Under the pieces are notes generated by a model. It saw only the letters and a list, made by a program, of their open reading frames with translations, was not told where the DNA came from and ran no database searches. A stretch of 31,250 bases of DNA from Dehalococcoidia bacterium (lineage in GTDB: Bacteria > Chloroflexota > Dehalococcoidia > GIF9 > UBA5629): contig JBFYUA010000118.1 of the NCBI GenBank assembly GCA_041300305.1, forward strand, positions 1 to 31,250, in the 5' to 3' direction. Below are positions 16,866 through 31,250 of the stretch, in pieces (the stretch's first letter is position 1; every line of letters begins with the position of its first letter). The position numbers and the translations under genes were made by a program.

Positions 16866-17330
16866 CTATTCTTCCAATTCTTCGTTTAGTGCCGCAATAT
16901 TAGCGATTTTACCCGTAGTAACCTGCAGGGCCACGTGGGTCTGGCTCTTCCTTACACCTGTTATCTTGGGCAGGTAATCCTTGAGAAATTTGGCCATGCC
17001 GGCGGACGATTCGAACCATGCGCCAAACAGGATATCGAACGGACCGGTGCAAAGCGCTACGAAGTCCACATTGCTACAACTGGCCAGTGACCGGGTAATA
17101 TCGTCTACGTGAGGCGCCTCAACCTCCAGCAGGATAAAGGCCCTTACACTGTATCCCAGTTTGGCCGGGTCAGGTATAACCGACCAATTGATTATGCCCT
17201 GCTGTACCAGGCGGATTATCCTTCGCCTCACCGTTTTTTCGCTCACCCCCAGCTTGCGGGACAAATCAATATTGCTCTGCCGCGCGTCGTTAGTCAACTC
17301 ACCGATCAGTTTACTGTCCAACCTGTCCAT
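16866..17330 (-). CDS. Lrp/AsnC family transcriptional regulator
   Basis: LDSKLIGELTNDARQSNIDLSRKLGVSEKTVRRRI HTH followed by a RAM domain (CTGPFDI). Confidence 0.92.
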   Translation of the reverse strand: MDRLDSKLIGELTNDARQSNIDLSRKLGVSEKTVRRRIIRLVQQGIINWSVIPDPAKLGYSVRAFILLEVEAPHVDDITRSLASCSNVDFVALCTGPFDILFGAWFESSAGMAKFLKDYLPKITGVRKSQTHVALQVTTGKIANIAALNEELEE

Positions 17331-17597: not shown

Positions 17598-17629
17598 AGA
17601 ATTAGGCCTGTATGCATTTAGGGGTGACC

Positions 17630-18835
17630 ATGGATTTTGGCCTGGGGCAAAGAGAAGAAGCGTTACGGCAAGAGGTCCGTGAGTTCGCCGAGCGCGAGAT
17701 ACCGGACAGTTGTATAGTCAATTTTCTTGACGAAGAAAGCCGTGACGAGGATTGGACTTTCAGCCTTTCCATTTCTAAAAAGCTCGCTGACAGAGGGTGG
17801 CTGGTTATGGCATGGCCCGGGAGATACGGAGGGCGGGACGCTTCCCCCCTGGAGCAGATAGTTTTTGCCATGGAGTCTGCTTACTGGGGGATCCCCGGGC
17901 TTTCGATGGGAGTAAGCGGCACGGGCTGGGTTGGCCCCTCCCTGATGCTCTATGGCAACGAAGAGCAGCGGCAGAAATATCTCCCGGCAATAGCCTCCGG
18001 CAGTCCGGACGGCGTCTGGTGCACAGGTTACAGCGAACCCAATGCAGGATCGGATTTTGCCAGTATCCGGACGAAGGCCGTGCGGCAGGGCGATGAATAC
18101 ATAATTAACGGCCAGAAGGTCTGGACAAGCTGCGCCCACAGGGCGAGGTGGTGCTGGCTAGCAGCTAAAACCAACTCCAACGGCGGAAAGCCGCAGGACG
18201 GCATAAGCCTGTTGATTGTAGACATGAAAAGCCCGGGCATAACCATTAAGCCGCTGCTCAACTACAGCGGCGAACACATATTCAATGAAGTTTTCTTCGA
18301 CAATGTGCGTGTGCCGGCGGCGGACCTGGTAGGTGAGGAGAACCGGGGCTGGTACCAGCTGATGAAATCACTGGCCTACGAACGTCACAGTTTCGGCGGC
18401 CAGTCCTATGGACTCGGCAAGCGGATATTATCCAGTCTGATCAGATATGCTGGAGAGACAAAACGCAACGGCAGGCTGATGGCCAACGACCCCATAGTCA
18501 GGCACACGCTGGCGGACATGGCCGTCGAACTGGAAACGCTCAAGATGTTTATCTATGAGATTGCCTGGAAACTGGGCGAAGGGACAGTCCCTGTATACGA
18601 AGCTTCCAGGAACAAGTCTTTTGCCGATCACCTGCTGGAGCAGATGGCCCTGGCCGGGACCGAAATCCTGGGGGCCTGCTGCCAGGCAGGGCAATATTCC
18701 AGACAGACCCGGTTGAAAGGCCTGATACAGCGTCAGTACCTGATGTCCCCGGGAACAGCTATCGCGGCCGGGACCGATGAGATTGAAAAGAATATCATCG
18801 GTAAGTTTAAGCTCGGCCTGCCCAGGTCCTATTAG
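17630..18835 (+). CDS. Acyl-CoA dehydrogenase, catalytic subunit (FadE26/FadE29-like)
   Basis: WPGRYGG, CTGYSEPNAGSD, NGQKVWTS, FNEVFFDNVRVP, helix-G Glu in LAYER, C-terminal IAAGTDEI. Start set at the MDF ATG after the SD GGGGTG. Confidence 0.9.
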   Translation: MDFGLGQREEALRQEVREFAEREIPDSCIVNFLDEESRDEDWTFSLSISKKLADRGWLVMAWPGRYGGRDASPLEQIVFAMESAYWGIPGLSMGVSGTGWVGPSLMLYGNEEQRQKYLPAIASGSPDGVWCTGYSEPNAGSDFASIRTKAVRQGDEYIINGQKVWTSCAHRARWCWLAAKTNSNGGKPQDGISLLIVDMKSPGITIKPLLNYSGEHIFNEVFFDNVRVPAADLVGEENRGWYQLMKSLAYERHSFGGQSYGLGKRILSSLIRYAGETKRNGRLMANDPIVRHTLADMAVELETLKMFIYEIAWKLGEGTVPVYEASRNKSFADHLLEQMALAGTEILGACCQAGQYSRQTRLKGLIQRQYLMSPGTAIAAGTDEIEKNIIGKFKLGLPRSY

Positions 18836-18852
18836 CCGCAAGAGGTTCCAAC

Positions 18853-20028
18853 TTGAACTTCAACTTCACAGAACAACAGAATATGCTCAGGGCCATGGCC
18901 AGGGAGTTCCTGGCCGGCGAGTGCCCCAAATCCAGAACCCGTGAACTGGAGAAAGACGTGAAGGGCTATGATCCCGGCACGTGGAAACGCATGGCGGAAT
19001 TAGGCTGGATGGGCCTGCATTTGCCAGAGGAATATCAAGGCAGCGGCGCCGGTTTGGGGGACATGGTTGTCCTGATGGAAGAGATGGGCCGCAATATACT
19101 GCCTGGGCCGTTTTTCTCTACGGTGGCGCTGGCCGCCTTACCTATCATGGACTTCGGCAGCGTGGACCAGCAGGCCAGGTACCTGCCCGGCATAGCGAGC
19201 GGTGAAACGGTCTGGACACTGGCAATAAATGAGGAACTGTCTGGCAGCGGGTTTGCGAATGTCCGGACATCGGTGCGGCCGGCGGACGGGGCTTATGTGC
19301 TTAACGGGAAAAAAACGTTCGTGCCCTACGCCAATGTGGCGGACTATATGCTGGTGCCCGCACGCATGAGTAACAGCAGGGCCCTTGAAAAGGGGCTAAC
19401 GTTATTTATTGTTGATATGAAGCAACCCGGAGTCGAAACCGCCGTTATCCCTACGATTACAGGGGAGACATTGTGCCAGGTTAAATTTAAAAACGTAAAG
19501 CTTGGCGGCAACGATGTGCTGGGGAAGACGGGCACTGCAGAAAACATGCTCGCGCAGCTCCTGGATAAGGCCGCGCTGCTGAAATGCGCTGAGGTATCCG
19601 GCGCCTGCCAGGCAGTGCTTGAAATGACCATTGCCTACGCCAAAGAAAGGCAGCAGTTTGGCAAGCCGATAGGTACCTTCCAGGTCATCCAACACAGGCT
19701 GGTGGATATGCTGATGCAAGTGGAGGGGCTGCAATATCTCGTATACCAGGCTGCCTGGCTTATGAGCACCGGCGCAGACTGCGCCGCGCAGATCGCCATG
19801 GCGAAAGTAAAAGCCAATAAAGTGTACCAGTGCGTGGCCCTCGACGGGATCAAGATCCACGGCGCAATAGGGTTTTCCATGGACCATGACATAGGACTGT
19901 ACTACAGGCGCGTCCTGGCGTCCAGGTTCCTCCCCCATGATACCGGACACTACCTGGAAAAGGTAGCCGAAGGGATCGGGCTTCGATCGATAGATAAGGG
20001 AAAAAAATCAGCAAACAATATCAACTAA
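18853..20028 (+). CDS. Acyl-CoA dehydrogenase, partner subunit (FadE27/FadE28-like)
   Basis: YAKERQQFGKPIGTFQVIQH and HGAIGF motifs are present; the SEP..GSD and C-terminal GT.EI motifs are absent. TTG start with AGAGG SD. Confidence 0.88.
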   Translation: MNFNFTEQQNMLRAMAREFLAGECPKSRTRELEKDVKGYDPGTWKRMAELGWMGLHLPEEYQGSGAGLGDMVVLMEEMGRNILPGPFFSTVALAALPIMDFGSVDQQARYLPGIASGETVWTLAINEELSGSGFANVRTSVRPADGAYVLNGKKTFVPYANVADYMLVPARMSNSRALEKGLTLFIVDMKQPGVETAVIPTITGETLCQVKFKNVKLGGNDVLGKTGTAENMLAQLLDKAALLKCAEVSGACQAVLEMTIAYAKERQQFGKPIGTFQVIQHRLVDMLMQVEGLQYLVYQAAWLMSTGADCAAQIAMAKVKANKVYQCVALDGIKIHGAIGFSMDHDIGLYYRRVLASRFLPHDTGHYLEKVAEGIGLRSIDKGKKSANNIN

Positions 20029-20307: not shown

Positions 20308-20940
20308 ATGTCAGATCTCGCCCATGCCATAGCGGACCTCAAGGAAGACGATGTCAAGAAAATCGTGCAGGACGAACTCGCCTCGGGCATAAATCCAATG
20401 TCGATAGTGGATGAGTGCCGACGGGGCATGGAAATCGTCGGGCAACGCTACAAGGATAAAGAGTATTTCCTGGGCGAACTGATCATGTCCGGCGAGATTT
20501 TTAAGGAGGCCATGGCGACGATTGGGCCCAAATTGAAAGCGGGCCAATCGGGAAAACCGGTCGCCAGGATGGTGCTCGGCACCGCCAGGGGAGATATACA
20601 TAACATCGGCAAGGATATCGCAGCCACGCTTCTTAATGCCGCCGGCTTCGAAATCTACGATGTGGGTACAGATGCAGCCCCCGAGGTCTTTGTTAACAAG
20701 CTGAAGGAAACAGGCGCGCCGATACTGGGCATCTCCGGCCTGCTCACACCTTCCTTTGAGTCCATGAAACAGACGGTCCAGGCACTTGAAGCAGCGGGCC
20801 TTCGGGACAAGGTAAAGGTCATCATCGGAGGCGGCATCGTCACCGAGGTTGTGCGAAAATACGTAGGCGCCGATGCCTTCACGGACGACGCCCCTGAGGG
20901 AGTCGAACTGTGCAAGAAACTGGCAGCGGAGGTGAAATAG
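20308..20940 (+). CDS. Methyltransferase cognate corrinoid protein (MtbC/MttC/MetH B12-binding type)
   Basis: Cap domain (GMEIVGQRY...YFLGELIMSGE), base-off DxHxxG motif GDIHNIGK, SGLLT, IIGGG. SD AGGAGG. Confidence 0.93.
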   Translation: MSDLAHAIADLKEDDVKKIVQDELASGINPMSIVDECRRGMEIVGQRYKDKEYFLGELIMSGEIFKEAMATIGPKLKAGQSGKPVARMVLGTARGDIHNIGKDIAATLLNAAGFEIYDVGTDAAPEVFVNKLKETGAPILGISGLLTPSFESMKQTVQALEAAGLRDKVKVIIGGGIVTEVVRKYVGADAFTDDAPEGVELCKKLAAEVK

Positions 20941-22095
20941 ATGATCAGGGAAACCATGACCCCCACCGAACGCACATGGGCCGCTATCAAGCTTGAGCCG
21001 TGTGACCGTATTCCCGTCGCTCCTCTTATGGACGTTATGTTCCCATCGAGGCATAAGGGCATGACGGTGGCCGAGGGCATCTCCCATCCCCGCAGGGGCT
21101 TCCAGGCCATTGTAGACACCTTTGATGACGTTGGCGGCTGGGATGCCATGATACTGCCGGGGTATAGCCTTCCCATACCCCCCAGCATTGCTGCCGTTAT
21201 GCAGATAGTCATCGGTGATACCAGGTACCCCGGGAAGGAACCGGGCTTCTCTGAAGACTCCTCGCCCCAGTTCATAGAAAAAGAGCTCCTTACGATCGAT
21301 GACTACGATGAGATAATAAAGCTGGGCTGGACAGGATTTGCCGAAAAGAACCTCGGCCGCTTTTTCCCGCTGGACCCGGAGCTATTGCTGGCCTGGAGCA
21401 GAAGGCAAATGGACCGCTACAGGACCGAGGGGGAGATATGGAAGGCGCGCAACATACCTTCGTTATGCGGGGCAATAGTGATGTCCCCGCTTATGTTCCT
21501 CTCCACCAGGAGGTCGCTCGTTTCGTTTACACAGGATCTTTACCGGTTCCCCGACAAGGTCCAGGCTGTCATGGACGCCATGATCGACGACCTGATCAAA
21601 TTTCCCATCGAAGCGGCCCGTGCAACCGGTATACCAGGTGTACAGCTGATATTGGAAAGGGGCGGCTGTTTCTACTATCCATTGAGAATATTCGAACGCT
21701 TTGAGTTCCGCTATATGAAAAAGATGATCGAGGCATTTGCCGCCGAAGGACTGATAACGATTATGCATTTTGACCAGGACTGGACGCTCAACCTGCCCTA
21801 CCTCCTCGACCTCCCGAAGAAAATGTGCGTCTGCGAACTGGACAGCACCACCGACATCTTTAAGGCCAAGGAAATACTCAAAAACCACATGTGTATCATG
21901 GGAGACGTTCCTGCCTCACTCAGCAGCATCGGCACAACCGGGGAGATGCAGGCCTATTGCGAAAAGCTGATCGACCATATCGGTAAAGGGAAGACGGGGT
22001 TCATCCTTAGCACCGGGTGCACGATCCCATTCGATGCTAAATTCGAGAATTTCCAGGTCATGATCAATTCCGTAAAAAACCATTTGCCGCAGTGA
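20941..22095 (+). CDS. Uroporphyrinogen decarboxylase-fold (MtaA/CmuA/COG0407) corrinoid-dependent methyltransferase
   Basis: MTPTER..AA..EPCDRIPV, MHFDQDW, CIMGDVP, FILSTGC. Directly coupled to the corrinoid protein gene, with an internal SD GGAGGTG. Confidence 0.85.
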   Translation: MIRETMTPTERTWAAIKLEPCDRIPVAPLMDVMFPSRHKGMTVAEGISHPRRGFQAIVDTFDDVGGWDAMILPGYSLPIPPSIAAVMQIVIGDTRYPGKEPGFSEDSSPQFIEKELLTIDDYDEIIKLGWTGFAEKNLGRFFPLDPELLLAWSRRQMDRYRTEGEIWKARNIPSLCGAIVMSPLMFLSTRRSLVSFTQDLYRFPDKVQAVMDAMIDDLIKFPIEAARATGIPGVQLILERGGCFYYPLRIFERFEFRYMKKMIEAFAAEGLITIMHFDQDWTLNLPYLLDLPKKMCVCELDSTTDIFKAKEILKNHMCIMGDVPASLSSIGTTGEMQAYCEKLIDHIGKGKTGFILSTGCTIPFDAKFENFQVMINSVKNHLPQ

Positions 22096-22245: not shown

Positions 22246-22291
22246 AGGCCGCCGGGTGAATTCAACAGCTATCAACCGGCATTGCAGGCCA

Positions 22292-23533
22292 TTACCTCAT
22301 CACAGGGACGCTGTCTATCGTGTCCATTCTTTTAATAGAGCCCAGTTTAAGTGACGCCAGGAAGTCCAGGCAAACAGGCCTGTAGTTAACCAGTTCGGCG
22401 CTCACGTTGATCGTCTTCCTGTCACCATTAATAAAACAATACTCTTTCAAGTCGTTGTTGTGTTTGTGCCCGTGGATTACCCATCCGTTCCAGTCTATGG
22501 GCAGCCTGTCGGGATCATGAGTAAGCAGGAAAGTGTATCTGCCGCATTTTATGACATCGTATTCCTTCGCGTCCCTGACACCGGCGTCGTGCCCGCCCCT
22601 GATAATTTTTTTCTTCCCACTTAGTCTCCCCAGCCAATAATCTGCCGGCCTTGAGCCCTCTCCAAAAGACAGGTCGCCCAGAAAATAAACCTCGTCATTG
22701 CCGACAATGTTATTCCAGTTATCTACCAGCACGCTATTCATTTCATCGACATTTGATGGAACAAACGGCCTGGCGCAATACTCAATGATATTTGCATGGT
22801 CCAGGTGCAGGTCGCTGATAACGTAGGGCGGCCTTCTATCGGCCCCGGGCCTGGCGCCCTCGGTGCCTGTGGCGATCCTGAACAGCTTCAAAGTCCTGCC
22901 CCACTCATCAGTGGCCAGGGATTCCGACCTGGAAAGCAGCCTCTGTTGCAGGAAATCATACTCACAGAGTATTTTAGATTGATCATTCAAAAAGGTAACC
23001 CGCAGGGCGTTCAGCGGTAAATAAAAATACCGCATGTGGTGATCTTCAGCATCCGCCGCGTGGGCTGAGAATTTCGTGGCCAGGGACCCATCGCTGCACA
23101 GGTAGGGCCATATGCGTTCGAACTCCCTGCTGTCCAACTTGTAGGACAGGGTAGCATGAAACAGGAAATCTTCTTCTTTATCAAAATGCTTCGTCTCGGG
23201 CACTATCCTGAGCAGACGCTGCGCCAGTTCCCGGCGGAACTTTATGAACTCGGGAGAAGGTACAATATTAAAATAAACGACCTTACCGTTCCTGCCGTTT
23301 ATCCAGCGGAAGCCGTCAATCAGGTATGGCAGAAATGAATATCTCTTGCCGACGGATAGCAGGACCTCTTTCACACGTTCCACCTGCCTGTAGTCAGCCG
23401 AAAAACTGCCATACAGGGATATATGCGGGACCCTATGTATTTTATCCACTGGCGTACCGCTGAGCCGGTGGACCTGAAGAATGGACTGGGTCAGCTTCCG
23501 CTTCCCCGGCCCTATGCGTATCTCAATTAACAT
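22292..23533 (-). CDS. Fusion of a 2H phosphoesterase (2'-5' RNA ligase-like) and a calcineurin-like metallophosphoesterase
   Basis: 2H motifs PHISL (H37) and FHATL (H126). MPP motifs SDLH, LGD, RGGHD, LTHD, IHGHKH and the 'YCARPF...EMN..LV.NWN' subfamily signature. Confidence 0.85.
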   Translation of the reverse strand: MLIEIRIGPGKRKLTQSILQVHRLSGTPVDKIHRVPHISLYGSFSADYRQVERVKEVLLSVGKRYSFLPYLIDGFRWINGRNGKVVYFNIVPSPEFIKFRRELAQRLLRIVPETKHFDKEEDFLFHATLSYKLDSREFERIWPYLCSDGSLATKFSAHAADAEDHHMRYFYLPLNALRVTFLNDQSKILCEYDFLQQRLLSRSESLATDEWGRTLKLFRIATGTEGARPGADRRPPYVISDLHLDHANIIEYCARPFVPSNVDEMNSVLVDNWNNIVGNDEVYFLGDLSFGEGSRPADYWLGRLSGKKKIIRGGHDAGVRDAKEYDVIKCGRYTFLLTHDPDRLPIDWNGWVIHGHKHNNDLKEYCFINGDRKTINVSAELVNYRPVCLDFLASLKLGSIKRMDTIDSVPVMR

Positions 23534-23613
23534 TTACCGGTCTTGCTATGGCCGTCCTACTATCTCAACGCGTGCATTTTCAGGACGGCCGCTATCCTTT
23601 GCTGAAATGAATT

Positions 23614-25197
23614 TCATTGTACTACAGTCACCGTGACAATGGCCCTGTCAGTGCCGGCGCTGTTTATGGCGGTCAGGGTATAGTCGGTAGTTACAGAGGG
23701 TGATACCAACTGCGAAAATTTTGAAGCTGGAATGCCGATGCCCTGATCGATGGTAAATAAAGCGGCCCCCTTGATAGACCAGGAGAGGCTGGACGTTCCA
23801 CCAACAGTAATACTGCCGGGCACGGCAGTAAAGGATTTTATTACCGGTGCTGTACCGTCTGATGACTTGTTCACCGTAACCGTAACTTCTGCCGTTTCCG
23901 TACCGAAGGTGTTGACAGCCGATAATTTATAGGTGGAGTCAGTAGCGGTGGGGATTACCATCGTCCAACCTGAAGCCGGCACGGCACCGACATCCGGGCT
24001 GATCGAGACCGCCCTTGCCCCGCTAACGGCCCAGGTCAGGGTTATATTGTCTCCCAGCGTGATTGAATTACTACTTGCGGAGAAAGTTTTTATCGCGGGT
24101 GGGTCTTTCGTGATAGCAGCGCCCGGCGCATTGGTTGCCTCGACTGTAACCGTGACTGACCTGCTCACCTTGCTGTTTGCATTTTCGGCCGTCAATGTAT
24201 AGATGGTGGTTGCAGTAGGGGTTACTTCCTTAGAACCCTTTGGCGGCACGGCGCCAACGCCCTGGTTGATATAAATTGTAGCCGGGCCAATAATGTCCCA
24301 TGCCAGGGTCGAACTCTGGCCGCCACTGATAAATGCCTCGCTTGCACTGAAGGTGGTTATGATAGGTGCGCTCGATTTTGTTACCGTGAGCGTTGCCAAT
24401 GCCGTGGGGTTGCCTGCGCTATTAGAAGCCGTCAGTGTGTAGGTGGTAGTTAAAGACGGTGACACGCTTTGCGTCCCGGCCGATGATACGGTCCCTATAT
24501 CGGGGTTGATGGAAACAGACGTTGCCCCGGTAACACTCCATGACAATATGGCTGATTGCCCTGTGAATATGCTGTCAGTATTAAAACCGAATTTGTCTAT
24601 GGACGGCGGGGCAGCGGTAACCTTAATAGTTACAGACTTGCGCACAGAGCCGGACATATTATTGGCAATCAGGGTATATGTTGCCGTTGATTCGGGAGAT
24701 ACGGTCCGGCTTCCGTTAGAAGAAACCGTCCCTATACCGGGACTGATAGAAACCGAACTTGCCCCGGCAACATCCCAGTGCAAAGTCGCCTCCTGGCCCG
24801 GCGTGATCGTCGAGGCGCTGGCATCAAAGGACGACACAACCGGCGCTACGAAAGGCCTCGAGATTTCCCCCCACATGGCGATGACTGCTCCGGCAAACGC
24901 AGTAACTATGACCACGCTAATAGATATTTTTATAATCGTTTCCTTGTAGACCTGTATTCGCTGCAACAAACCCGGTCCGTCATCACTATCTTGCGGATGG
25001 TCCAGGTCCTGATCTCCCGGAACTGCCGATTGATCATCGAAAGAGGCCTGTTGGCCGGGATACTGACTTTGAGGTGATTGGTTTTGAGGTTGAGTCGGCG
25101 ACGGGGGCCAATTAAAAACCATCTTACAGTTGGTGCAATACGCCTGGCCGAAAGCCACCGGCGCTCTACAGTTGGGACAGGAATACATTTGCTGCAT
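23614..25197 (-). CDS. Zinc-ribbon / TM / five tandem Ig(PKD)-like repeat surface protein
   Basis: CPNC..CTNC..WP, Q/P/D-rich linker, TM at about residues 88-110, five repeats of about 80-90 aa. Confidence 0.85.
   Translation of the reverse strand: MQQMYSCPNCRAPVAFGQAYCTNCKMVFNWPPSPTQPQNQSPQSQYPGQQASFDDQSAVPGDQDLDHPQDSDDGPGLLQRIQVYKETIIKISISVVIVTAFAGAVIAMWGEISRPFVAPVVSSFDASASTITPGQEATLHWDVAGASSVSISPGIGTVSSNGSRTVSPESTATYTLIANNMSGSVRKSVTIKVTAAPPSIDKFGFNTDSIFTGQSAILSWSVTGATSVSINPDIGTVSSAGTQSVSPSLTTTYTLTASNSAGNPTALATLTVTKSSAPIITTFSASEAFISGGQSSTLAWDIIGPATIYINQGVGAVPPKGSKEVTPTATTIYTLTAENANSKVSRSVTVTVEATNAPGAAITKDPPAIKTFSASSNSITLGDNITLTWAVSGARAVSISPDVGAVPASGWTMVIPTATDSTYKLSAVNTFGTETAEVTVTVNKSSDGTAPVIKSFTAVPGSITVGGTSSLSWSIKGAALFTIDQGIGIPASKFSQLVSPSVTTDYTLTAINSAGTDRAIVTVTVVQ
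23617..24843 (-). repeat. Five tandem beta-sandwich protein repeats
   Basis: Consensus P.I..F.A....I..G....L.W.V.GA..V.I.P.IG.V...G...V.P..T..YTL.A.N..G......V.V recurs five times. Confidence 0.85.
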
Positions 25198-25387
25198 AAT
25201 AGGTTACCTGTATCAAAGTTGTAGCTATGAGTATATTATACACATAGTGTAAACTTTTAATCCTATGACCTTGCCCTATAATTAGTATCTTACCTGACTG
25301 GCGTTCAAACGTGAGCAGTAATAATATTACCAACCACCGGGGCTGAATTTCGGGCATGTTTTGGGTTATTTGCGGGGTCATAGCAGC

Positions 25388-25417
25388 TTGACTAACAAAT
25401 TTGCAGGGTTGTACAAT
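25388..25417 (+). promoter_or_regulatory. Sigma70-type promoter TTGACT-N18-TACAAT
   Basis: Hexamers at 25388-25393 and 25412-25417, about 155 nt upstream of ATG 25572. Confidence 0.5.
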
Positions 25418-25571
25418 TGGCCGCACGCACAAAAAGGTTCGGCGTCAGCTTTCTGAAGTCGCTATAGGAAGTCCCGGTTTAATTCGTCTTTGGCCGGCCA
25501 CTATTTTCTTTCTATCCCTTCCTTCAGTTACAGCAGAAAGCCGTCCTTCTCATAGCTGATATGGGGATAAC

Positions 25572-25982
25572 ATGAAAAAATGCAGGGAGTGCCAGCATGA
25601 TATAAGTGAACAGGCTTTATCTTGCCCAAAATGTGGTGCTCCCTATCCAGCCAGGGAGAAATGGGATGGGTGGGGATATGAGTATAAAAGCAAAACAATT
25701 ATCTTGGGGTTACCCCTGCTTCATATCTCGTTCAAATATCACCCGAATAGAATGCCGGTACCTGCCAAAGGAATAATTGCCATTGGGCAGTTTGCTATCG
25801 GCATTATAAGTATTGCTCAATTTGGTATAGGTATTATCAGCATTAGTCAATTCACAATTGCCGCCTACGCCCTGGCGCAATTTGCGATCGCATATTCATT
25901 GGTTGCGCAGATTGGATTATATGTTGACCAGGGATATGGGCAGCTTGTCTGGAACATCATTGAACTGATAAAAAATTTATAG
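25572..25982 (+). CDS. Zinc-ribbon protein with GYEYKS..LGLPL.HI segment and 10-residue hydrophobic repeats
   Basis: CREC..CPKC, then GIIAIGQFAI/GIISIAQFGI/GIISISQFTI/AAYALAQFAI/AYSLVAQIGL. SD GGGGA. Confidence 0.8.
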   Translation: MKKCRECQHDISEQALSCPKCGAPYPAREKWDGWGYEYKSKTIILGLPLLHISFKYHPNRMPVPAKGIIAIGQFAIGIISIAQFGIGIISISQFTIAAYALAQFAIAYSLVAQIGLYVDQGYGQLVWNIIELIKNL

Positions 25983-26145
25983 GAAATCAAGGATAATGTC
26001 TCATCGAAGAGTATGTAAGTGTTGGTGGCGAGGCTGGTGACGGTACTCCTTCAATATGCCGCGAAACCAGATAATCCTGGATATACCAGGTAAATATTTC
26101 ATGCCTTAGAAATCCCGTGGTAACAATATACTATAAGGAGTATCC

Positions 26146-27078
26146 ATGAATATAAAATCATTTTGGGGAAATTACAAATTCATCATTATTCTGCTTGTGA
26201 TTATGATAATCGCAGCGGTCGTCGTTTTATCAATGGGACAAACATCAATAGTCGGAGTTCCTCACATGGATAACCTACTGATGATTGTGCTTATAGTTGT
26301 AGGTTTGGCAGCCGGTCTCCTGGGCGGATGGATTGGTACTGGTGGTTGTAGCGTAATGCTTCCGGTTTTACACTTCTGGCTTGGTTTTCCTGCATCCATA
26401 GCTGTTGGCACGACACTTTTCGCAGTTATTTTTACGGCTGTATCAGGCGGCTATGGACATTTTATGCGGAGGAACGTGGATAAACGTGTTGCTCTATGGA
26501 TGGGAGGCGCAGGAATTATCGGTGTATTACTTGGTTCATGGCTTTTCACTTTTATTTCAAGCCAGTCAGCTCTTTTAGGTTGCATTATTGGTATTGTTTT
26601 CTTGTGGCCTGCCATTAGAATGAGCTGGGAAGGAATCACTGGTTTTAAGAAAAACCAGTCTGCATCAGGGACACCCGCAGCTCCTCAAAGCCAATCCATT
26701 AAAGGCCATCCTGCAAAATTGTCAATATTTGGAGGTGGCGTTGGGGTACTGACCGGGGTTGTGGGTCTCGGTGGCGGATATGCTCTCGTACCTGGTCTGA
26801 TATACCTATTTGGTGCGGCTGTTTATATAACCATGGGTACCTCTTTAGCGATTATGGTGCCGATGGCTATCGTGGGTGGATCAATTAAGCTCGCTCAGGG
26901 ATACGTTTTTTTAAGTGCTGCTCTACTTCTGGCAATAGGTACGATCGTAGGAGCTCAATTAGGAGCAGCTACAATAACAAAATTTAAGCCAAATGTATTA
27001 AAATTGATATTTGGTGTCTATTTCCTTTACGTAGCAATTAAATTTATCGGCAATTATCTCGGGATCGCCGTTTGGTGA
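26146..27078 (+). CDS. TauE/SafE (TSUP) family sulfite exporter-like membrane protein
   Basis: Two halves with GxGGG-type loops (IGTGGCSVMLP, VGLGGGYALVP), AVGTTL, MGTSLA. SD AAGGAG. Confidence 0.88.
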   Translation: MNIKSFWGNYKFIIILLVIMIIAAVVVLSMGQTSIVGVPHMDNLLMIVLIVVGLAAGLLGGWIGTGGCSVMLPVLHFWLGFPASIAVGTTLFAVIFTAVSGGYGHFMRRNVDKRVALWMGGAGIIGVLLGSWLFTFISSQSALLGCIIGIVFLWPAIRMSWEGITGFKKNQSASGTPAAPQSQSIKGHPAKLSIFGGGVGVLTGVVGLGGGYALVPGLIYLFGAAVYITMGTSLAIMVPMAIVGGSIKLAQGYVFLSAALLLAIGTIVGAQLGAATITKFKPNVLKLIFGVYFLYVAIKFIGNYLGIAVW

Positions 27079-27086
27079 ATTACTTG

Positions 27087-27129
27087 AAACATGCAGAGGC
27101 TGCTAATAGAAGTAGCCTCTGCATGTTTT
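27087..27129 (+). terminator. Intrinsic terminator with an 18-bp stem
   Basis: AAACATGCAGAGGCTGCT-aataga-AGTAGCCTCTGCATGTTT with one G-U pair, ending in TTTT, 8 nt after the tauE stop. Confidence 0.8.
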
Positions 27130-27321
27130 ATGCAAAGTCGTGTGCCAAGATGGCAAAATTTATAAAGCCACCCTGGCATTGCAGATAATAGAAGTTCGGG
27201 AACTGTCTTGAGTGGTATTGTCTTTAGCTTCAGACTTTTGGATAGTGGGGCATTATGACTGTCCACGAACTACTATTCGAGAAAAAGTCGTTGGTTCTGG
27301 CTTTGCAGCAGTAATAGCAGT

Positions 27322-27333
27322 TGACCTTACCCC
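27322..27333 (+). mobile_element. Solo IS3-family terminal repeat relic (TGACCTTACCCC)
   Basis: 12/12 identity to the reverse complement of the IS right end at 29888-29899. Confidence 0.55.
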
Positions 27334-27412
27334 ATACCACCCATTCGTAACCCTGTTCCCAACCACACCTTGATTCCCTCAGGCAGCAAAGGTACCGAAA
27401 GAGCCTGCCGGT

Positions 27413-27454
27413 TTGACATATATATACTGTATATACTATATTAGTATATATAAT
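27413..27454 (+). promoter_or_regulatory. TetR promoter with overlapping AT-rich palindromes (candidate operator)
   Basis: TTGACA 27413-27418, TATATAC-T-GTATATA 27421-27435, TATATACTA-TAT-TAGTATATA 27430-27450, TATAAT 27449-27454. Confidence 0.6.
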
Positions 27455-27465
27455 ATACAATTGAT

Positions 27466-28035
27466 ATGAAGTATAAAGACGTCCGCATTACAGACCGGGT
27501 TTACAACGTTGCTTCCTCACACATTTTTCGCACGGGTTTAAAAGGCTGGCATATGGATCAACTTGCAGAAGAATGTGGCCTGACCAAACGTACACTCTAC
27601 AAAATCGTTCCAAATAAAGAGGCACTGGTTGAGCAGGTTATGCTGAAATTCATCAATTCGGTGCAGGAAAACCTGTCAGTCGTGTTGAAGGAAAGCAAAA
27701 ACTTCAAACAGTCAATATCGGATATGGCAGATCTTTTCCCGCAACTGGTGAGTGGTACAAATTCAGGGATCATACAGGAGATATTTCTTGAATATCCCGC
27801 CATTGAAGAAAAATTAATAAAACAGCGCAGCAAGATTACCGCCGGTCTTATAGCTTTTTTGCAAAAGGGAGTGAAGCAGGGGCAACTGCGGAAAGACCTC
27901 GAGCCGGCATTTATAATCGAGATGCTGCAGGCTTTTATTCTGTATTTTATCAAGTCTGATCCAACAGGCGCACAATCCCCGGCCAAGATTAAGGCCGCCG
28001 CACATTGTCTGCTGCATGGTATATTGCGTGATTAA
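27466..28035 (+). CDS. TetR/AcrR family transcriptional regulator
   Basis: HTH GLKGWHMDQLAEECGLTKRTLYKIVPNKEAL, 189 aa. Confidence 0.9.
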   Translation: MKYKDVRITDRVYNVASSHIFRTGLKGWHMDQLAEECGLTKRTLYKIVPNKEALVEQVMLKFINSVQENLSVVLKESKNFKQSISDMADLFPQLVSGTNSGIIQEIFLEYPAIEEKLIKQRSKITAGLIAFLQKGVKQGQLRKDLEPAFIIEMLQAFILYFIKSDPTGAQSPAKIKAAAHCLLHGILRD

Positions 28036-28074
28036 AACGTACTAAAAGTGAACCTTTCTTAAGGAGGACCTGCC

Positions 28075-28908
28075 ATGAAAAACGTACTCGTGATAATGGG
28101 TAGCCCCCGTAAAAACGGGGACAGCGCACATATTGCCGGCCTGGTAGAGGAGAAAATGAAATCGCTGGGCGAGGTCAACTTCAAATATATTACATTGAAA
28201 AACACCAGGCTGGAATATTGCCGGGGCTGCCTGGCATGTATGATCAAAGGTGAAGACTATTGTCCACTTAAAGATGATGCACTCTCGCTACGCGCAGACC
28301 TGCTGAACGCTGATGGAGTGATTTTTGCTTCTCCTGTGTATATTCATCAGGTATCAGCGCCGCTGAAGAACTTTTTTGACAGGTTTGCATTTTTTATGCA
28401 CAGGCCGGCTTTTCATAGCAAGTGCTCATTAACTATATGCTCGACCGAGATCAGTGGCCTGGCGGAGACCAGTGCGTATTTAAAATGGATTGCCAGCTGC
28501 TGGGGCTTCTTCAACGTTCACAGTATTGGCATCATTGCCGATGCATTTAAAGAAGAAGGTCCATATAGGCGGAAAGCCATGTCTGAAATAAACAGGGCGG
28601 CGCAGGACTTCTTCGTAGCTATGCAAACAGGCAAGCGCCCCGCTCCAGCGCTGGATGATATGAGATTTTTCAATTTAATACGCATGAAGGTAAAAATACA
28701 CAAAGACAAGATGCCCCGTGATTATCATTACTGGGAAGAGAGGGGTTGGCTAAATGCCGGCTATTTTTATCCTGCAAGGCTTAACCCTCTCTTTGTAATT
28801 CTCGGCAAATTACCGGTACGGTTAATAATGCTGGTACTGCGCCTTAATCTGGGCAGTTCACTTTACCGGCGAATGGTCGGAAGCGCCAACCCTCGGCATG
28901 CCAAATAA
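28075..28908 (+). CDS. Iron-sulfur flavoprotein / NADPH-dependent FMN reductase family protein
   Basis: IMGSPRKNG FMN loop, Cx2Cx2Cx7C (CRGCLACMIKGEDYCP), ADGVIFASPVY, LKNFFDR. SD AAGGAGG. Confidence 0.88.
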   Translation: MKNVLVIMGSPRKNGDSAHIAGLVEEKMKSLGEVNFKYITLKNTRLEYCRGCLACMIKGEDYCPLKDDALSLRADLLNADGVIFASPVYIHQVSAPLKNFFDRFAFFMHRPAFHSKCSLTICSTEISGLAETSAYLKWIASCWGFFNVHSIGIIADAFKEEGPYRRKAMSEINRAAQDFFVAMQTGKRPAPALDDMRFFNLIRMKVKIHKDKMPRDYHYWEERGWLNAGYFYPARLNPLFVILGKLPVRLIMLVLRLNLGSSLYRRMVGSANPRHAK

Positions 28909-29028
28909 AAAACTACCATCATATTATGTAAAATGTACAAAGGTTATGATTAGTGACGTTCCCCCGTAAAACCGCAGCACCTTGTCTTAGAGTCCTCGAA
29001 ATAAATAAAATATCAGGGGAGGGCTCAA

Positions 29029-29295
29029 TTGAAAGCAAGGCAGTACACCGAAGAACAGATCATCAATGTTCTCAAAGAGGGAGAAGCTGGCGCCAAGGTT
29101 TCTGATCTCTGTCGCAAGTATGGGATGAGCGACGCCACCTATTACAACTGGAAAGCCAAATACTCAGGGATGACTGCAAGTGACCTGAAAAAGCTCAAGT
29201 CTCTTGAGCATGAGAACCGCCGTCTGAAACAGATCGTGGGGGAACAGGCCCTCGATATCCGTGCGCTGAAGGACCTACTGTCAAAAAACTTCTAA
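29029..29295 (+). CDS. IS3-family transposase OrfA (HTH)
   Basis: [48 protein letters not shown]. Confidence 0.93.
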
Positions 29296-29867
29296 AGCCC
29301 AGGGCCAGACGTCTGGCAGTCTCCTATACCAGGGAAAGCCATGGGCTGAGCGAAAGGAAAGCGTGCACGCTGGTCAATATATCGACCTCGGTATATCGTT
29401 ACCGGCCGAAACCGGACAATGATACTGCCATCCGGCAGCGTTTTCGCGCGTTGGCCATTGTTGATGACTATTCCAGGGAATGTCCTGCCATCGAAGTTGA
29501 CACTTCTTTAGGAGGGGCCAGAGTGGTCAGTGTCCTGGAAAGGTTATCTCAAACACGAGGCTTACCTGACGTAATTACGCTGGATAACGGGCCGGAGTTT
29601 GCTGGCAGGCATTTAGACGAGTGGGCTTTTCGCAATGGTGTTAAATTGAACTTCATTCGACCAGGGAAGCCGATAGAAAATGCTTTTGCTGAGAGCTTCA
29701 ACGGCAGGCTACGCGATGAGTGTTTGAATACCAATTGGTTTCTCAATCTGAAACATGCCAGGGAGATCATCGAGGACTGGCGCAAGGATTACAATGAAGT
29801 TAGACCACACAGCTCGTTGAATCATAGAACGCCGGTGGAGTATGCTTATACAACGGCTGGATTCTAA
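29283..29867 (+). pseudogene. IS3-family transposase OrfB with an in-frame internal deletion
   Basis: The -1 frame reads KKLLKP...SERKAC...YRY...IRQR and joins directly to [14 protein letters not shown]. The FGYRR/HTH_21 region and the WSxDF segment (first DDE Asp) are missing; DNGPEF and AESFNG remain. Confidence 0.85.
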
Positions 29868-29899
29868 GCGCTGGTGCCGCTAAATGCGGGGTAAGGTCA

Positions 29900-30266
29900 C
29901 TAATCCCTTAACAGTCCTGTTAGGCAGCTTAGGCTTCTTCACATTGGCCATGGGATTGTGTTCAATCAATCCCTCTTCCATCGCCCAGGTAAACATTGTA
30001 GATACGCTTATGTAATAGCTTTTGACCGTTGTAGGCGATACTGGTCTGTTTGCACGAGCATTATTTGTGTCCCATCTATGGGTTGTATCTTTTACATATA
30101 CGAGAAAGCTTCTGATGGTATTGGCATCGATATCCTGGATGCTGTTTTTATCAAGAAACCATCGAAATTTATCGAGGTTATTTTTATAGAAGGATATGGT
30201 TGCAGCTGATTTGTTCTAAACCTTACAGGATAAGAGAAATCCTTCAATCAAACGGTGTAATGGCAT
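29900..30266 (-). pseudogene. N-terminal (SAM-like/core-binding) part of a tyrosine recombinase, with a nonsense codon, truncated by the IS
   Basis: MPLHRLIEGFLLSCKV*NKSAATISFYKNNLDKFRWFL...IRSFLVY...VSPTTVKSYY...MFTWAMEEGLIEHNPMANVKKPKLPNRTVKGL runs into the IS right end. TAG at 30216-30218. Confidence 0.8.
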
Positions 30267-30738
30267 ACTTAATGGCGCTTGAGAATTTGGACGAATAGAA
30301 AGGTGATCAGGATTTGGTTTAGCTTCAGAAAACTGAATGGTGGGCCCTTTTGGACAGTTCCCGAACTCGCATTTGATGGTAAAATGCTTATTCCGGCGCT
30401 TCAGCAATTGCTCATAGGAAAATAAAATAGGCCACCTAAAATTTATTGAGTGTAGCTGATCCGTACCACTGAGTGAACAAAATGTCCAAATTGCGGCCAC
30501 AGACGCGCAGGACCTAGTACCCTACTACCATCAAATAATAACGACAATGGCATTATATTCGGACGTATGGGTAATGCTGATAAATGCGAACTTAACGGTG
30601 AGATTAATATAATAGCCAGCGCTGCAACGGCGCTTAACAGATGCCCTTCATACAAACCCAGCTGTGAAAATAGCTTAATGGGAGCAGAATAGACTTGCCA
30701 TATAACAAGTTATAGAATGTGACGGGGAGTTATATCGC

Positions 30739-31250
30739 ATGTTAAACCAAGAATTACATTCGAATACCAGCTCATCCTTGAAAAAGAAAGGGGAAGGACT
30801 ATCAGCGCATCCATTTGCTTGGCCGTATTATTTATTTGGTTTTGCATTAGTTGCACTCGCCACCTTGTTAGGTCATTTAACCAGCGGGCTATTAGCCCCT
30901 ACCAATATAATCATGATCTACCTACTATGTGTCACCATATCTGCTATATTTGGTGGTCTTGGCCCCTCTATCCTGGTATCCATTCTAAGCGTTCTTGCTT
31001 TTGATTTCTTCTTTGTTCCACCTTATCTTACTTTAAAGGTCGAGGACACTGAATACATATTCACCCTTGTTGTGTTACTTTTGGTTGGTATTGCGGTTAG
31101 CTACCTCACTGCGATGGTACGCCGTCAAACTGAAACATCGAAACGACACGAGCAAGAAATGGCTGCACTTTATGCCCTGGGGCAGGACTTAGCTATCGCC
31201 AATGACCTGCAAGCATACACAACATCTATTATTAACAGGATTAAAGGGAC
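30739..31250 (+). CDS. KdpD-like DUF4118 membrane sensor (TM region and start of GAF), 3'-partial
   Basis: Open to the window end: PTNIIMIYLLCV...LSVLAFDFFFVPPYLTLKVED.EYIFT...ALYALGQDL. SD GGGGAG. Missed by the ORF track because it has no stop. Confidence 0.85.
   Translation, partial: MLNQELHSNTSSSLKKKGEGLSAHPFAWPYYLFGFALVALATLLGHLTSGLLAPTNIIMIYLLCVTISAIFGGLGPSILVSILSVLAFDFFFVPPYLTLKVEDTEYIFTLVVLLLVGIAVSYLTAMVRRQTETSKRHEQEMAALYALGQDLAIANDLQAYTTSIINRIKG

Follow-up and report, generated by a model that had tools for sequence, protein, structure and literature searches.

A 31,250-nucleotide stretch of DNA from a bacterium of the Dehalococcoidia (Chloroflexota; assembly GCA_041300305.1, contig JBFYUA010000118.1, positions 1 to 31,250), hereafter the window, carries on its minus strand a gene (22292..23533) for a single polypeptide in which a 2H phosphoesterase domain is followed by a metallophosphoesterase (MPP) domain. 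Adjacency and gene fusion show this 2H-MPP architecture to be functionally linked to a NUDIX enzyme, and the likely substrate therefore shifts toward nucleotide or ADP-ribose-type small molecules. We see an even chance that the fusion family serves in the clean-up or salvage of nucleotides rather than as a dedicated component of RNA repair or immune signalling; as part of this reading, the product of the window gene would be a cytoplasmic phosphoesterase with two active sites. Both domains are of well-known kinds; their combination and the association with the NUDIX partner look new. A literature search for a 2H-MPP fusion or for the 2H-MPP-NUDIX triad found no paper, and an earlier in-silico mention is possible; one lead, to Deinococcus literature on NUDIX, calcineurin and LigT proteins, proved to be merely a table of expanded families.

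The gene runs from an ATG at 23533 to a TAA stop codon at 22292-22294 and specifies 413 amino acids. It is the sole open reading frame (ORF) across 22292-23533, the plus-strand translation being interrupted by stops throughout, and its start is supported by the N-terminus MLIE(I/V)RIGPGK common to the homologues. A word-index search returned 584 homologues, of which the best 120 are almost all 405-420 residues long, collinear and 50-93% identical; the database names of these 120 are '2'-5' RNA ligase family protein' or 'calcineurin-like phosphoesterase family protein/2'-5' RNA ligase' only. An exhaustive profile search of 1.8 billion representatives yielded 324 clusters (50% identity) at E<=1e-30, many of them full-length fusions well below 50% identity. 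The nearest relatives of the window protein (86-98% identity) are on Dehalococcoidales contigs from metagenome-assembled genomes (MAGs) and metagenomes. The family is shared by Dehalococcoidia and many archaea of anaerobic or DPANN groups, and the hosts at genome loci comprise Dehalococcoidia/Chloroflexota, Methanoregula, Methanosarcinales, Methanoperedens, Micrarchaeota, Nanoarchaeota, Iainarchaeota, Thaumarchaeota and Bathyarchaeia MAGs.

Because 113 collinear, full-length fusion ORFs occur on independent contigs, a frameshift artefact that joined two separate genes is ruled out. Strong purifying selection acts on both halves of the protein: over 30 pairs from within the window clade (NG86 method), dN/dS has medians of 0.073 (2H part) and 0.098 (MPP part), which excludes a decaying domain. 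The fusion proposed in the initial annotation is, on these two grounds, genuine. Among distant representatives the domains also appear in other company: P0163 is a 2H-MPP protein with a C-terminal DnaJ domain, P0225 carries a VWA domain followed by an MPP domain, and P0193 combines zf-AN1, MPP and transglutaminase-like domains.

By motif, model and fold, the N-terminal half (approximately residues 1-205; 22919..23533, minus strand) is a member of the 2H superfamily with a YjcG-like or archaeal LigT-like fold. PF13563 (2_5_RNA_ligase2) matches residues 33-148 with an E value of 7e-12 (46 bits against a gathering cut-off of 27). An AlphaFold2 (AF2) model of the fusion protein, built with 28 homologues, is of moderate quality (mean pLDDT 75), and Foldseek searches with its N-terminal half retrieved 1vdx, 2fyh, 2d4g (YjcG), 1jh6, Usb1 and plant CPDase; when the family profile was compared with the PDB, the best match of the 2H half was again 2d4g (E 1e-3). 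The first 2H motif, H37-I-S39 (23417..23425, minus strand; extended, PHISLYG), has an invariant H37 and a Ser or Thr at position 39 in 116/117 aligned homologues. The second, H126-A-T128 (23150..23158, minus strand; extended, FHATLSYK, with an invariant K132), has an invariant H126 and a Thr or Ser at position 128 in all homologues. Both histidines are unchanged in 120/120 homologues.

Within the superfamily, the RNA 2',3'-cyclic phosphodiesterases of the ThpR/LigT type are marked by the extended motifs HxTxxF and HxTxxR, the Arg of the latter being essential (PMC4201822). The window protein has instead HISLYG, with Tyr at +4 and Gly at +5, and HATLSYK, with Tyr at +5 and the invariant Lys at +6, and the ThpR/LigT-type model TIGR02258 gave no match to it; judged by these signatures, the domain is outside the ThpR/LigT clade. 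Its closest affiliation appears to be with the YjcG group, to which it is related at a level below that group's curated threshold (model NF010223, 15.9 bits against a cut-off of 129). YjcG of B. subtilis (2d4g), PH0099 of Pyrococcus (1vdx) and PF0027 (2fyh) share with residues 1 to ~205 the two HxS/T motifs and the predicted fold, and metal-independent chemistry would be expected of all. These three are single-domain proteins, whereas the window protein has a fused MPP domain, the invariant Lys132 one position later, a disordered insert at 147-169 and no ThpR/LigT extensions. YjcG itself has no known activity (PMC4201822). An interdomain helix and linker (approximately residues 206-235; 22829..22918, minus strand) connects the halves; W211, F218 and R219 are invariant in the homologue alignment, and residues 208-221 are helical in the AF2 model.

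The C-terminal half (residues 236-413; 22295..22828, minus strand) belongs to the AQ1665/phrog_547 family of small MPPs. The phrog_547 'phosphoesterase' profile matches residues 237-398 with an E value of 2.4e-32, and Aquifex aq_1665 (PDB 1xm7) was found by the family profile (E 1.3e-7) and as the top Foldseek match, its GNHD aligning with the GGHD of the window protein; besides 1xm7, Foldseek retrieved Vps29/YfcE-like MPPs. Pfam Metallophos_2 remained below threshold (17.8 bits against 27). The aq_1665 and phrog_547 proteins share with residues 236-413 the order of motifs and the segment DxHxxHxNI that follows the first strand, and their C-terminal segments are similar. They are stand-alone proteins of ~180-200 amino acids, whereas the window MPP has a fused 2H domain, an extra conserved C-terminal tail, KRMDTIDS, and a Gly for the motif-III Asn. 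The phrog_547-type family counts 1266 phage records, and our literature search found neither a characterised AQ1665/phrog_547 small MPP nor a reported activity for an aq_1665 or phrog_547 protein.

Motifs I, II, IV and V of the calcineurin-like superfamily are present, while motif III departs from GNH(D/E). On the minus strand, motif I (D241-L-H243, 22805..22813) is conserved in 120/120 homologues with residues at these positions, and motif II (G286-D287, 22673..22678) contributes the bridging Asp, found in 105/121 and replaced by N, G or E in a subclade. Motif III (G313-G314-H315-D316, 22586..22597), read directly as GGC GGG CAC GAC, has the Gly codon GGG (22592-22594) at the site of the metal-binding Asn. 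The motif IV residue H339 (22517..22519) is His in 119/121 homologues, and motif V (G355-H356-K-H358, 22460..22471) retains H356 in 117/121 and H358 in 120/121. Every residue that the initial annotation had singled out (H37/S39, H126/T128, D241/H243, G286-D287, 313-316, H339 and 355-358) was found at the number given for it, and its assignment of a 2H and a metallophosphoesterase domain is borne out by the Pfam, phrog, PDB-sequence and Foldseek matches.

A pointer to function comes from gene neighbourhoods, sampled through 3 contig look-ups, 51 genome loci and 80 metagenome loci. De novo clustering of all neighbours identified one orthologous family of small NUDIX proteins, with the NUDIX box GGGx5Ex7RELxEETGL, as the sole partner that recurs across distant lineages; the same clustering recorded LemA as a minor recurring neighbour, at 5 loci. 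A NUDIX gene lies within ~1 kb in 13 loci, which represent 12 groups below 70% identity and comprise 9 loci with full-length fusions and 4 with 2H-only relatives. Adjacency is joined by physical fusion: P0187 (567 amino acids) is a 2H-MPP-NUDIX triple fusion, P0208 (344 amino acids) is a NUDIX-MPP protein, and the NUDIX domains of both are of the partner family (E 8e-47 and 2e-41, respectively). A reversed MPP-2H order occurs in P0236. On one metagenome contig (L103:6001-9335), a full 2H-MPP fusion, an 83-residue ORF and a NUDIX gene are followed in one co-directional array by genes for the MPP alone and for the 2H domain alone, which places fused and split versions of one system side by side. 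The best match of the partner NUDIX family is the uncharacterised structure 3f13 (E 4e-26), with weak matches to Ap4A hydrolases, RppH and ADP-ribose pyrophosphatases (ADPRases). In two Woesearchaeota loci, a gene for a uridine-kinase-like P-loop kinase lies directly upstream of a 2H-NUDIX pair.

In the scheme we favour, the metal-independent 2H site (H37/S39 and H126/T128) would open the cyclic phosphodiester of a nucleotide-type substrate, as ThpR and the plant or yeast CPDases do without metal, the adjoining AQ1665/phrog_547-type MPP site would take off the resulting 2'-, 3'- or 1''-phosphomonoester, and the NUDIX partner, where present, would cut the pyrophosphate bond in the same metabolite. 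Members of the 2H superfamily hydrolyse 2',3'-cyclic phosphates as well as the 1'',2''-cyclic phosphate of ADP-ribose (Appr>p) (PMC4201822; PMC9503650). The candidate substrates include 2',3'-cyclic nucleoside monophosphates (2',3'-cNMPs) and short RNA fragments that end in a cyclic phosphate (RNA>p), and the uridine-kinase-like gene that adjoins the 2H-NUDIX pair fits salvage. With cyclic-phosphate opening before the dephosphorylation of RNA-derived nucleotides, and an MPP-superfamily phosphatase, the fusion would work in the manner of E. coli CpdB (2',3'-cyclic-nucleotide 2'-phosphodiesterase / 3'-nucleotidase) and of the Arabidopsis RNS2 - CPDase - PAP26 series (PMC12369478; see also PMC9958556); in the vacuolar RNA salvage of Arabidopsis, the purple acid phosphatase PAP26, an MPP-superfamily member, is the proposed phosphatase for RNase-derived nucleotides (PMC12369478). 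The plant steps are carried by separate proteins, whereas the window protein lacks a signal peptide and its steps would be split between the 2H and MPP domains of one chain. CpdB is periplasmic, performs both steps with an MPP domain and a 5'-nucleotidase C-terminal domain, and has no 2H domain.

The disposal of Appr>p in eukaryotes, by yeast Cpd1 or plant CPDase, the Poa1 macro domain and a NUDIX ADP-ribose pyrophosphatase, offers the one metabolite we could name for which all three linked activities are needed. The phosphatase of the window protein is an MPP and that of the eukaryotic route a macro domain; no Tpt1/KptA gene was found nearby, and the partner NUDIX matches ADPRases weakly, with 3f13 as its best match. 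From the initial annotation, which had suggested sequential cyclic-phosphate opening and dephosphorylation for repair after ribotoxin attack or for switching off nucleotide second messengers, the general two-step phosphoesterase idea survives, whereas its RNA-repair and immune-signalling settings find no support in the neighbours at ~90 distinct loci.

The RNA-repair alternative, the main idea of the initial annotation, merits a closer look. It holds that the 2H domain turns RNA 2',3'-cyclic phosphates into 2'-phosphates, and that the MPP domain then yields the 2',3'-OH ends on which a classical RNA ligase acts after ribotoxin damage. The fusion of a phosphomonoesterase would be logical here, as ThpR-like 2H enzymes leave a 2'-phosphate on RNA>p that calls for a second enzyme (PMC4201822), and RppH-type NUDIX enzymes act on RNA 5' ends, the partner NUDIX being weakly, at sub-threshold level, similar to the RppH and YtkD models. 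Yet the HxTxxF and HxTxxR signatures are missing from the 2H domain, TIGR02258 does not match the window protein, and RtcB, Hen1, RNA ligase, polynucleotide kinase and Tpt1 were found neither among the most frequent Pfam families of 106 + 58 neighbours nor in individually annotated loci. Most of the archaeal hosts rely on RtcB, which needs the 3'-phosphate or cyclic phosphate end that the fusion enzyme would destroy, a further count against end healing. Bacterial Pnkp, as in the Pnkp-Hen1 system of Clostridium thermocellum, does employ an MPP-superfamily phosphoesterase on 2',3'-cyclic and 3'/2'-phosphate RNA ends, in line with the end-healing logic of the initial annotation. The window protein differs from it in having no P-loop kinase or ligase-like domain, an MPP of another subfamily and an added 2H domain; several neighbours are generic methyltransferases, but no Hen1-type or kinase gene could be recognised in their midst. 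On balance, we regard RNA end healing as decidedly unlikely.

Similar reasoning applies to the idea that the protein switches off nucleotide second messengers, such as cyclic oligoadenylates, cyclic GMP-AMP (cGAMP), 2',5'-oligoadenylates or cyclic ADP-ribose isomers, in defence or counter-defence. The 2H superfamily does include viral 2',5'-phosphodiesterases and poxvirus cGAMP phosphodiesterases, the latter appear among the weak structural matches (9bkq), and the MPP-domain family is very common in phages, as its 1266 records attest. A 2H-only relative stands moreover in an array of NUDIX, TIR and 2H genes followed by one for a 229-amino-acid protein in a Chloroflexi MAG (L052:8678-11301), and its TIR protein matches the Thoeris ThsB and SAVED-TIR models. 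This locus is, however, the sole defence-like context seen and the only one with a TIR gene. PADLOC gave no match for the fusion protein, and a scan of viral contigs recovered no 2H-MPP fusion; CD-NTase and CRISPR genes were absent from the most frequent Pfam families of the same 106 + 58 neighbours, as were Cas10, SAVED, CARF and effector genes from the most frequent neighbour families. The contexts are metabolic or housekeeping in kind, and the protein thus departs from defence and counter-defence hydrolases such as Acb1-like enzymes and ring nucleases. Around ~90 distinct loci, none of the neighbourhoods to which the initial annotation had pointed (rtcB, hen1, CBASS, toxins) was seen, and we consider a role in second-messenger turnover very unlikely.

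Gly314 is not a sequencing slip: an Asn codon must change at no fewer than 2 bases to become GGG, and Gly is shared by homologues that are 87-93% identical. Relatives at or below 65% identity to the window protein mostly have the canonical GNHE or GNHD, and in the window's own clade position 314 is occupied by G, R, W, S, C, K, A, E or Y; with an entropy of 2.61 bits it stands at rank 14 among the 413 columns, the median within the MPP domain being 0.65. Fitch parsimony on a neighbour-joining tree of 112 sequences requires at least 9 changes between Asn and other residues, with Asn as the root set. The initial annotation had read the Asn-to-Gly change as a possible retuning of the site; given a position that is hypervariable in the clade, and from which Asn has come and gone so often in the family, the notion of a defined retuning falls away. 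In a set of 150 distant representatives, the residues found in place of Asn are S (13), D (5), G (5), T (2) and A (1), and 11 of the 13 Ser cases are in proteins without aligned 2H histidines. The NUDIX-linked members hold both canonical (GNHD/E) and non-canonical sites (GGHD at L133, GSHD at L137). A search for a residue that compensates for the lost Asn came up empty: the groups with and without Asn are told apart by positions 174, 316 (E to D) and 371 alone, and none supplies a new ligand.

How much catalysis survives such variation can be read in two ways. On the first, the MPP domain of the window clade would be a pseudoenzyme or binding module like Vps29, kept as a fold for substrate or partner binding while the 2H domain alone is catalytic. 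The range of residues at position 314, which takes in not only G, S, C and A but also the bulky or charged R, K and W, together with its high entropy, would accord with this view, as would the sub-threshold Metallophos_2 score and the presence of the non-catalytic Vps29 among the top structural matches. So would a subclade of the Dehalococcoidia group (P0014, P0016, P0017, P0023, P0039, P0041, P0045, P0051 and P0066; locus L013) in which D287N is joined with H315R/S/N/Y/D (e.g. GN...GNRD) and all 2H residues are kept. Across the 44 members of the window clade, however, D241, H243 and H358 never vary and H339 and H356 hardly do, despite dS values above 0.5-1, a pattern that is hard to explain without metal binding. 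Replacement of Asn by Gly or Ser has also arisen independently in distant members, namely in the NUDIX-linked L133 and L137 and in MPP-containing representatives without aligned 2H histidines (11 with Ser), and for this reason the family seems tolerant of the loss. A wholly non-catalytic MPP domain is, in our estimation, unlikely. On the second reading, which is ours, members of this MPP subfamily can do without the Asn side chain and the window clade would have no need of the motif-III Asn; because purifying selection acts on the remainder of the metal site and on the domain as a whole, the second site is probably still used, with an altered coordination of metal 2.

Several points nevertheless weigh against nucleotide clean-up or salvage as we have framed it. 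We infer both the substrate and the order of the steps. No NUDIX gene adjoins the fusion gene in the window or in its close relatives, and only 9 of 93 distinct full-length fusion loci have an adjacent one. Neither kptA/tpt1, RNase T2 nor another producer of the proposed substrates was found near the family loci. The window protein is without the Asn by which MPPs normally hold the second metal; several characterised MPPs lose all or much of their activity when this Asn is replaced, and a weakened or altered second site is for that reason a live possibility. The phosphatase step may be weak or even absent in the window clade, since in a subclade the bridging Asp and the catalytic His are gone as well.

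A last point on the same side is that the closest NCBIfam match of the MPP half is TIGR04123 (PdeM), a model annotated as a DNA-damage-response endonuclease (E 9e-4). The match, together with the fact that many small MPPs are diesterases, could suggest that this half is a nuclease or phosphodiesterase of the PdeM/MPE type and that damaged nucleic-acid ends, rather than monoesters, are what the protein processes. At 18.7 bits the match lies far under the cut-off of 150, the ligase, Lhr and exonuclease neighbours typical of PdeM operons were not seen, and in architecture the window fusion is no homologue of PdeM, nor of Pnkp or CpdB; we hold this explanation to be extremely improbable. The mycobacteriophage metallophosphoesterase (MPE) Gp48 (EMBO Rep 2025), considered as a relative of the MPP half by way of its Bxb1 homologue gp47, proved unrelated (hhalign probability 0.3%; BLASTP E 0.86). 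The Bxb1-type mycobacteriophage MPE reportedly has a DNA-damaging activity.

None of the neighbours of the fusion gene in the window is functionally suggestive. The gene is convergent with a plus-strand pair at 20308-22095, a corrinoid (B12-binding) protein followed by a methyltransferase of the URO-D family (MtaA/MtbA-like), which looks like a methyl-transfer or demethylase module. Farther out on the plus strand are two tandem acyl-CoA dehydrogenase genes (17612-20028), with an AsnC/Lrp regulator gene divergent from them (16866-17330); genes for an alpha/beta hydrolase and a class I methyltransferase lie on the minus strand upstream of the acyl-CoA dehydrogenases. On its other side, the fusion gene begins 80 bp downstream of a minus-strand gene (23614-25197) for a 527-residue protein with an N-terminal zinc ribbon, a Pro/Gln-rich linker, a probable membrane segment recognised by eye and ~5 Ig-like repeats of roughly 85-90 amino acids each, which match Pfam I-set weakly. 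In 6 related loci, a homologue of this gene lies no more than ~300 bp from the fusion gene, a matter of local synteny only. From just beyond the zinc-ribbon genes, the GC content falls from ~0.50-0.60 to 0.41-0.49 over the last ~6 kb (25001-31250), a region with unannotated ORFs and a TauE/SafE exporter gene (26146-27078) that may be of different origin.

Two potential signals flank the fusion gene. Between the upstream gene and the fusion start codon, the 80-bp spacer contains an inverted repeat with perfect 9-bp arms (GGCCGTCCT / AGGACGGCC) and a 23-nt loop (23550..23590, strand unassigned); no T-run follows it, and it could be a terminator of the upstream gene or a regulatory hairpin. A terminator-like hairpin on the minus strand (22248..22269), 23 nt past the fusion stop codon, is weak and matches the consensus only. 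Elsewhere in the family, gene contexts are lineage-specific and consist of ordinary housekeeping or metabolic genes. One Dehalococcoidales homologue (P0046, with a canonical GNHE) sits inside a co-directional oxidative-stress cluster (L003:1-17245) with genes for Fur, glutaredoxin, rubrerythrins, SufBD, a flavin reductase-rubredoxin, a flavodiiron-like protein, ferritin and Fe-SOD, and OsmC genes flank a Methanoregulaceae homologue (L005).

The boldest form of the proposal, which we put forward tentatively and think rather unlikely, is that the fusion and its dedicated NUDIX enzyme constitute an undescribed three-step pathway of archaea and Dehalococcoidia that completely dismantles a nucleotide bearing both a cyclic phosphate and a pyrophosphate, replaces the eukaryotic Cpd1/Poa1 route and employs an MPP without the canonical motif-III Asn at a non-standard metal site. 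The nucleotide economy of methanogens, DPANN archaea and Dehalococcoidia is poorly known, and some of these groups are thought to depend on salvage. If the proposed clean-up or salvage pathway is correct, the fusion family would represent a missing cytoplasmic route by which they dispose of or salvage 2',3'-cyclic nucleotides or ADP-ribose cyclic phosphate. It would also provide a first function for the small MPPs of the AQ1665/phrog_547 family, which occur in >1,200 phage genome records, and for a NUDIX family known only from the structural-genomics entry 3f13. Finally, position 314, which varies freely while the remaining metal site and the entire domain stay constrained, constitutes a natural experiment on how much of a binuclear MPP site is required.

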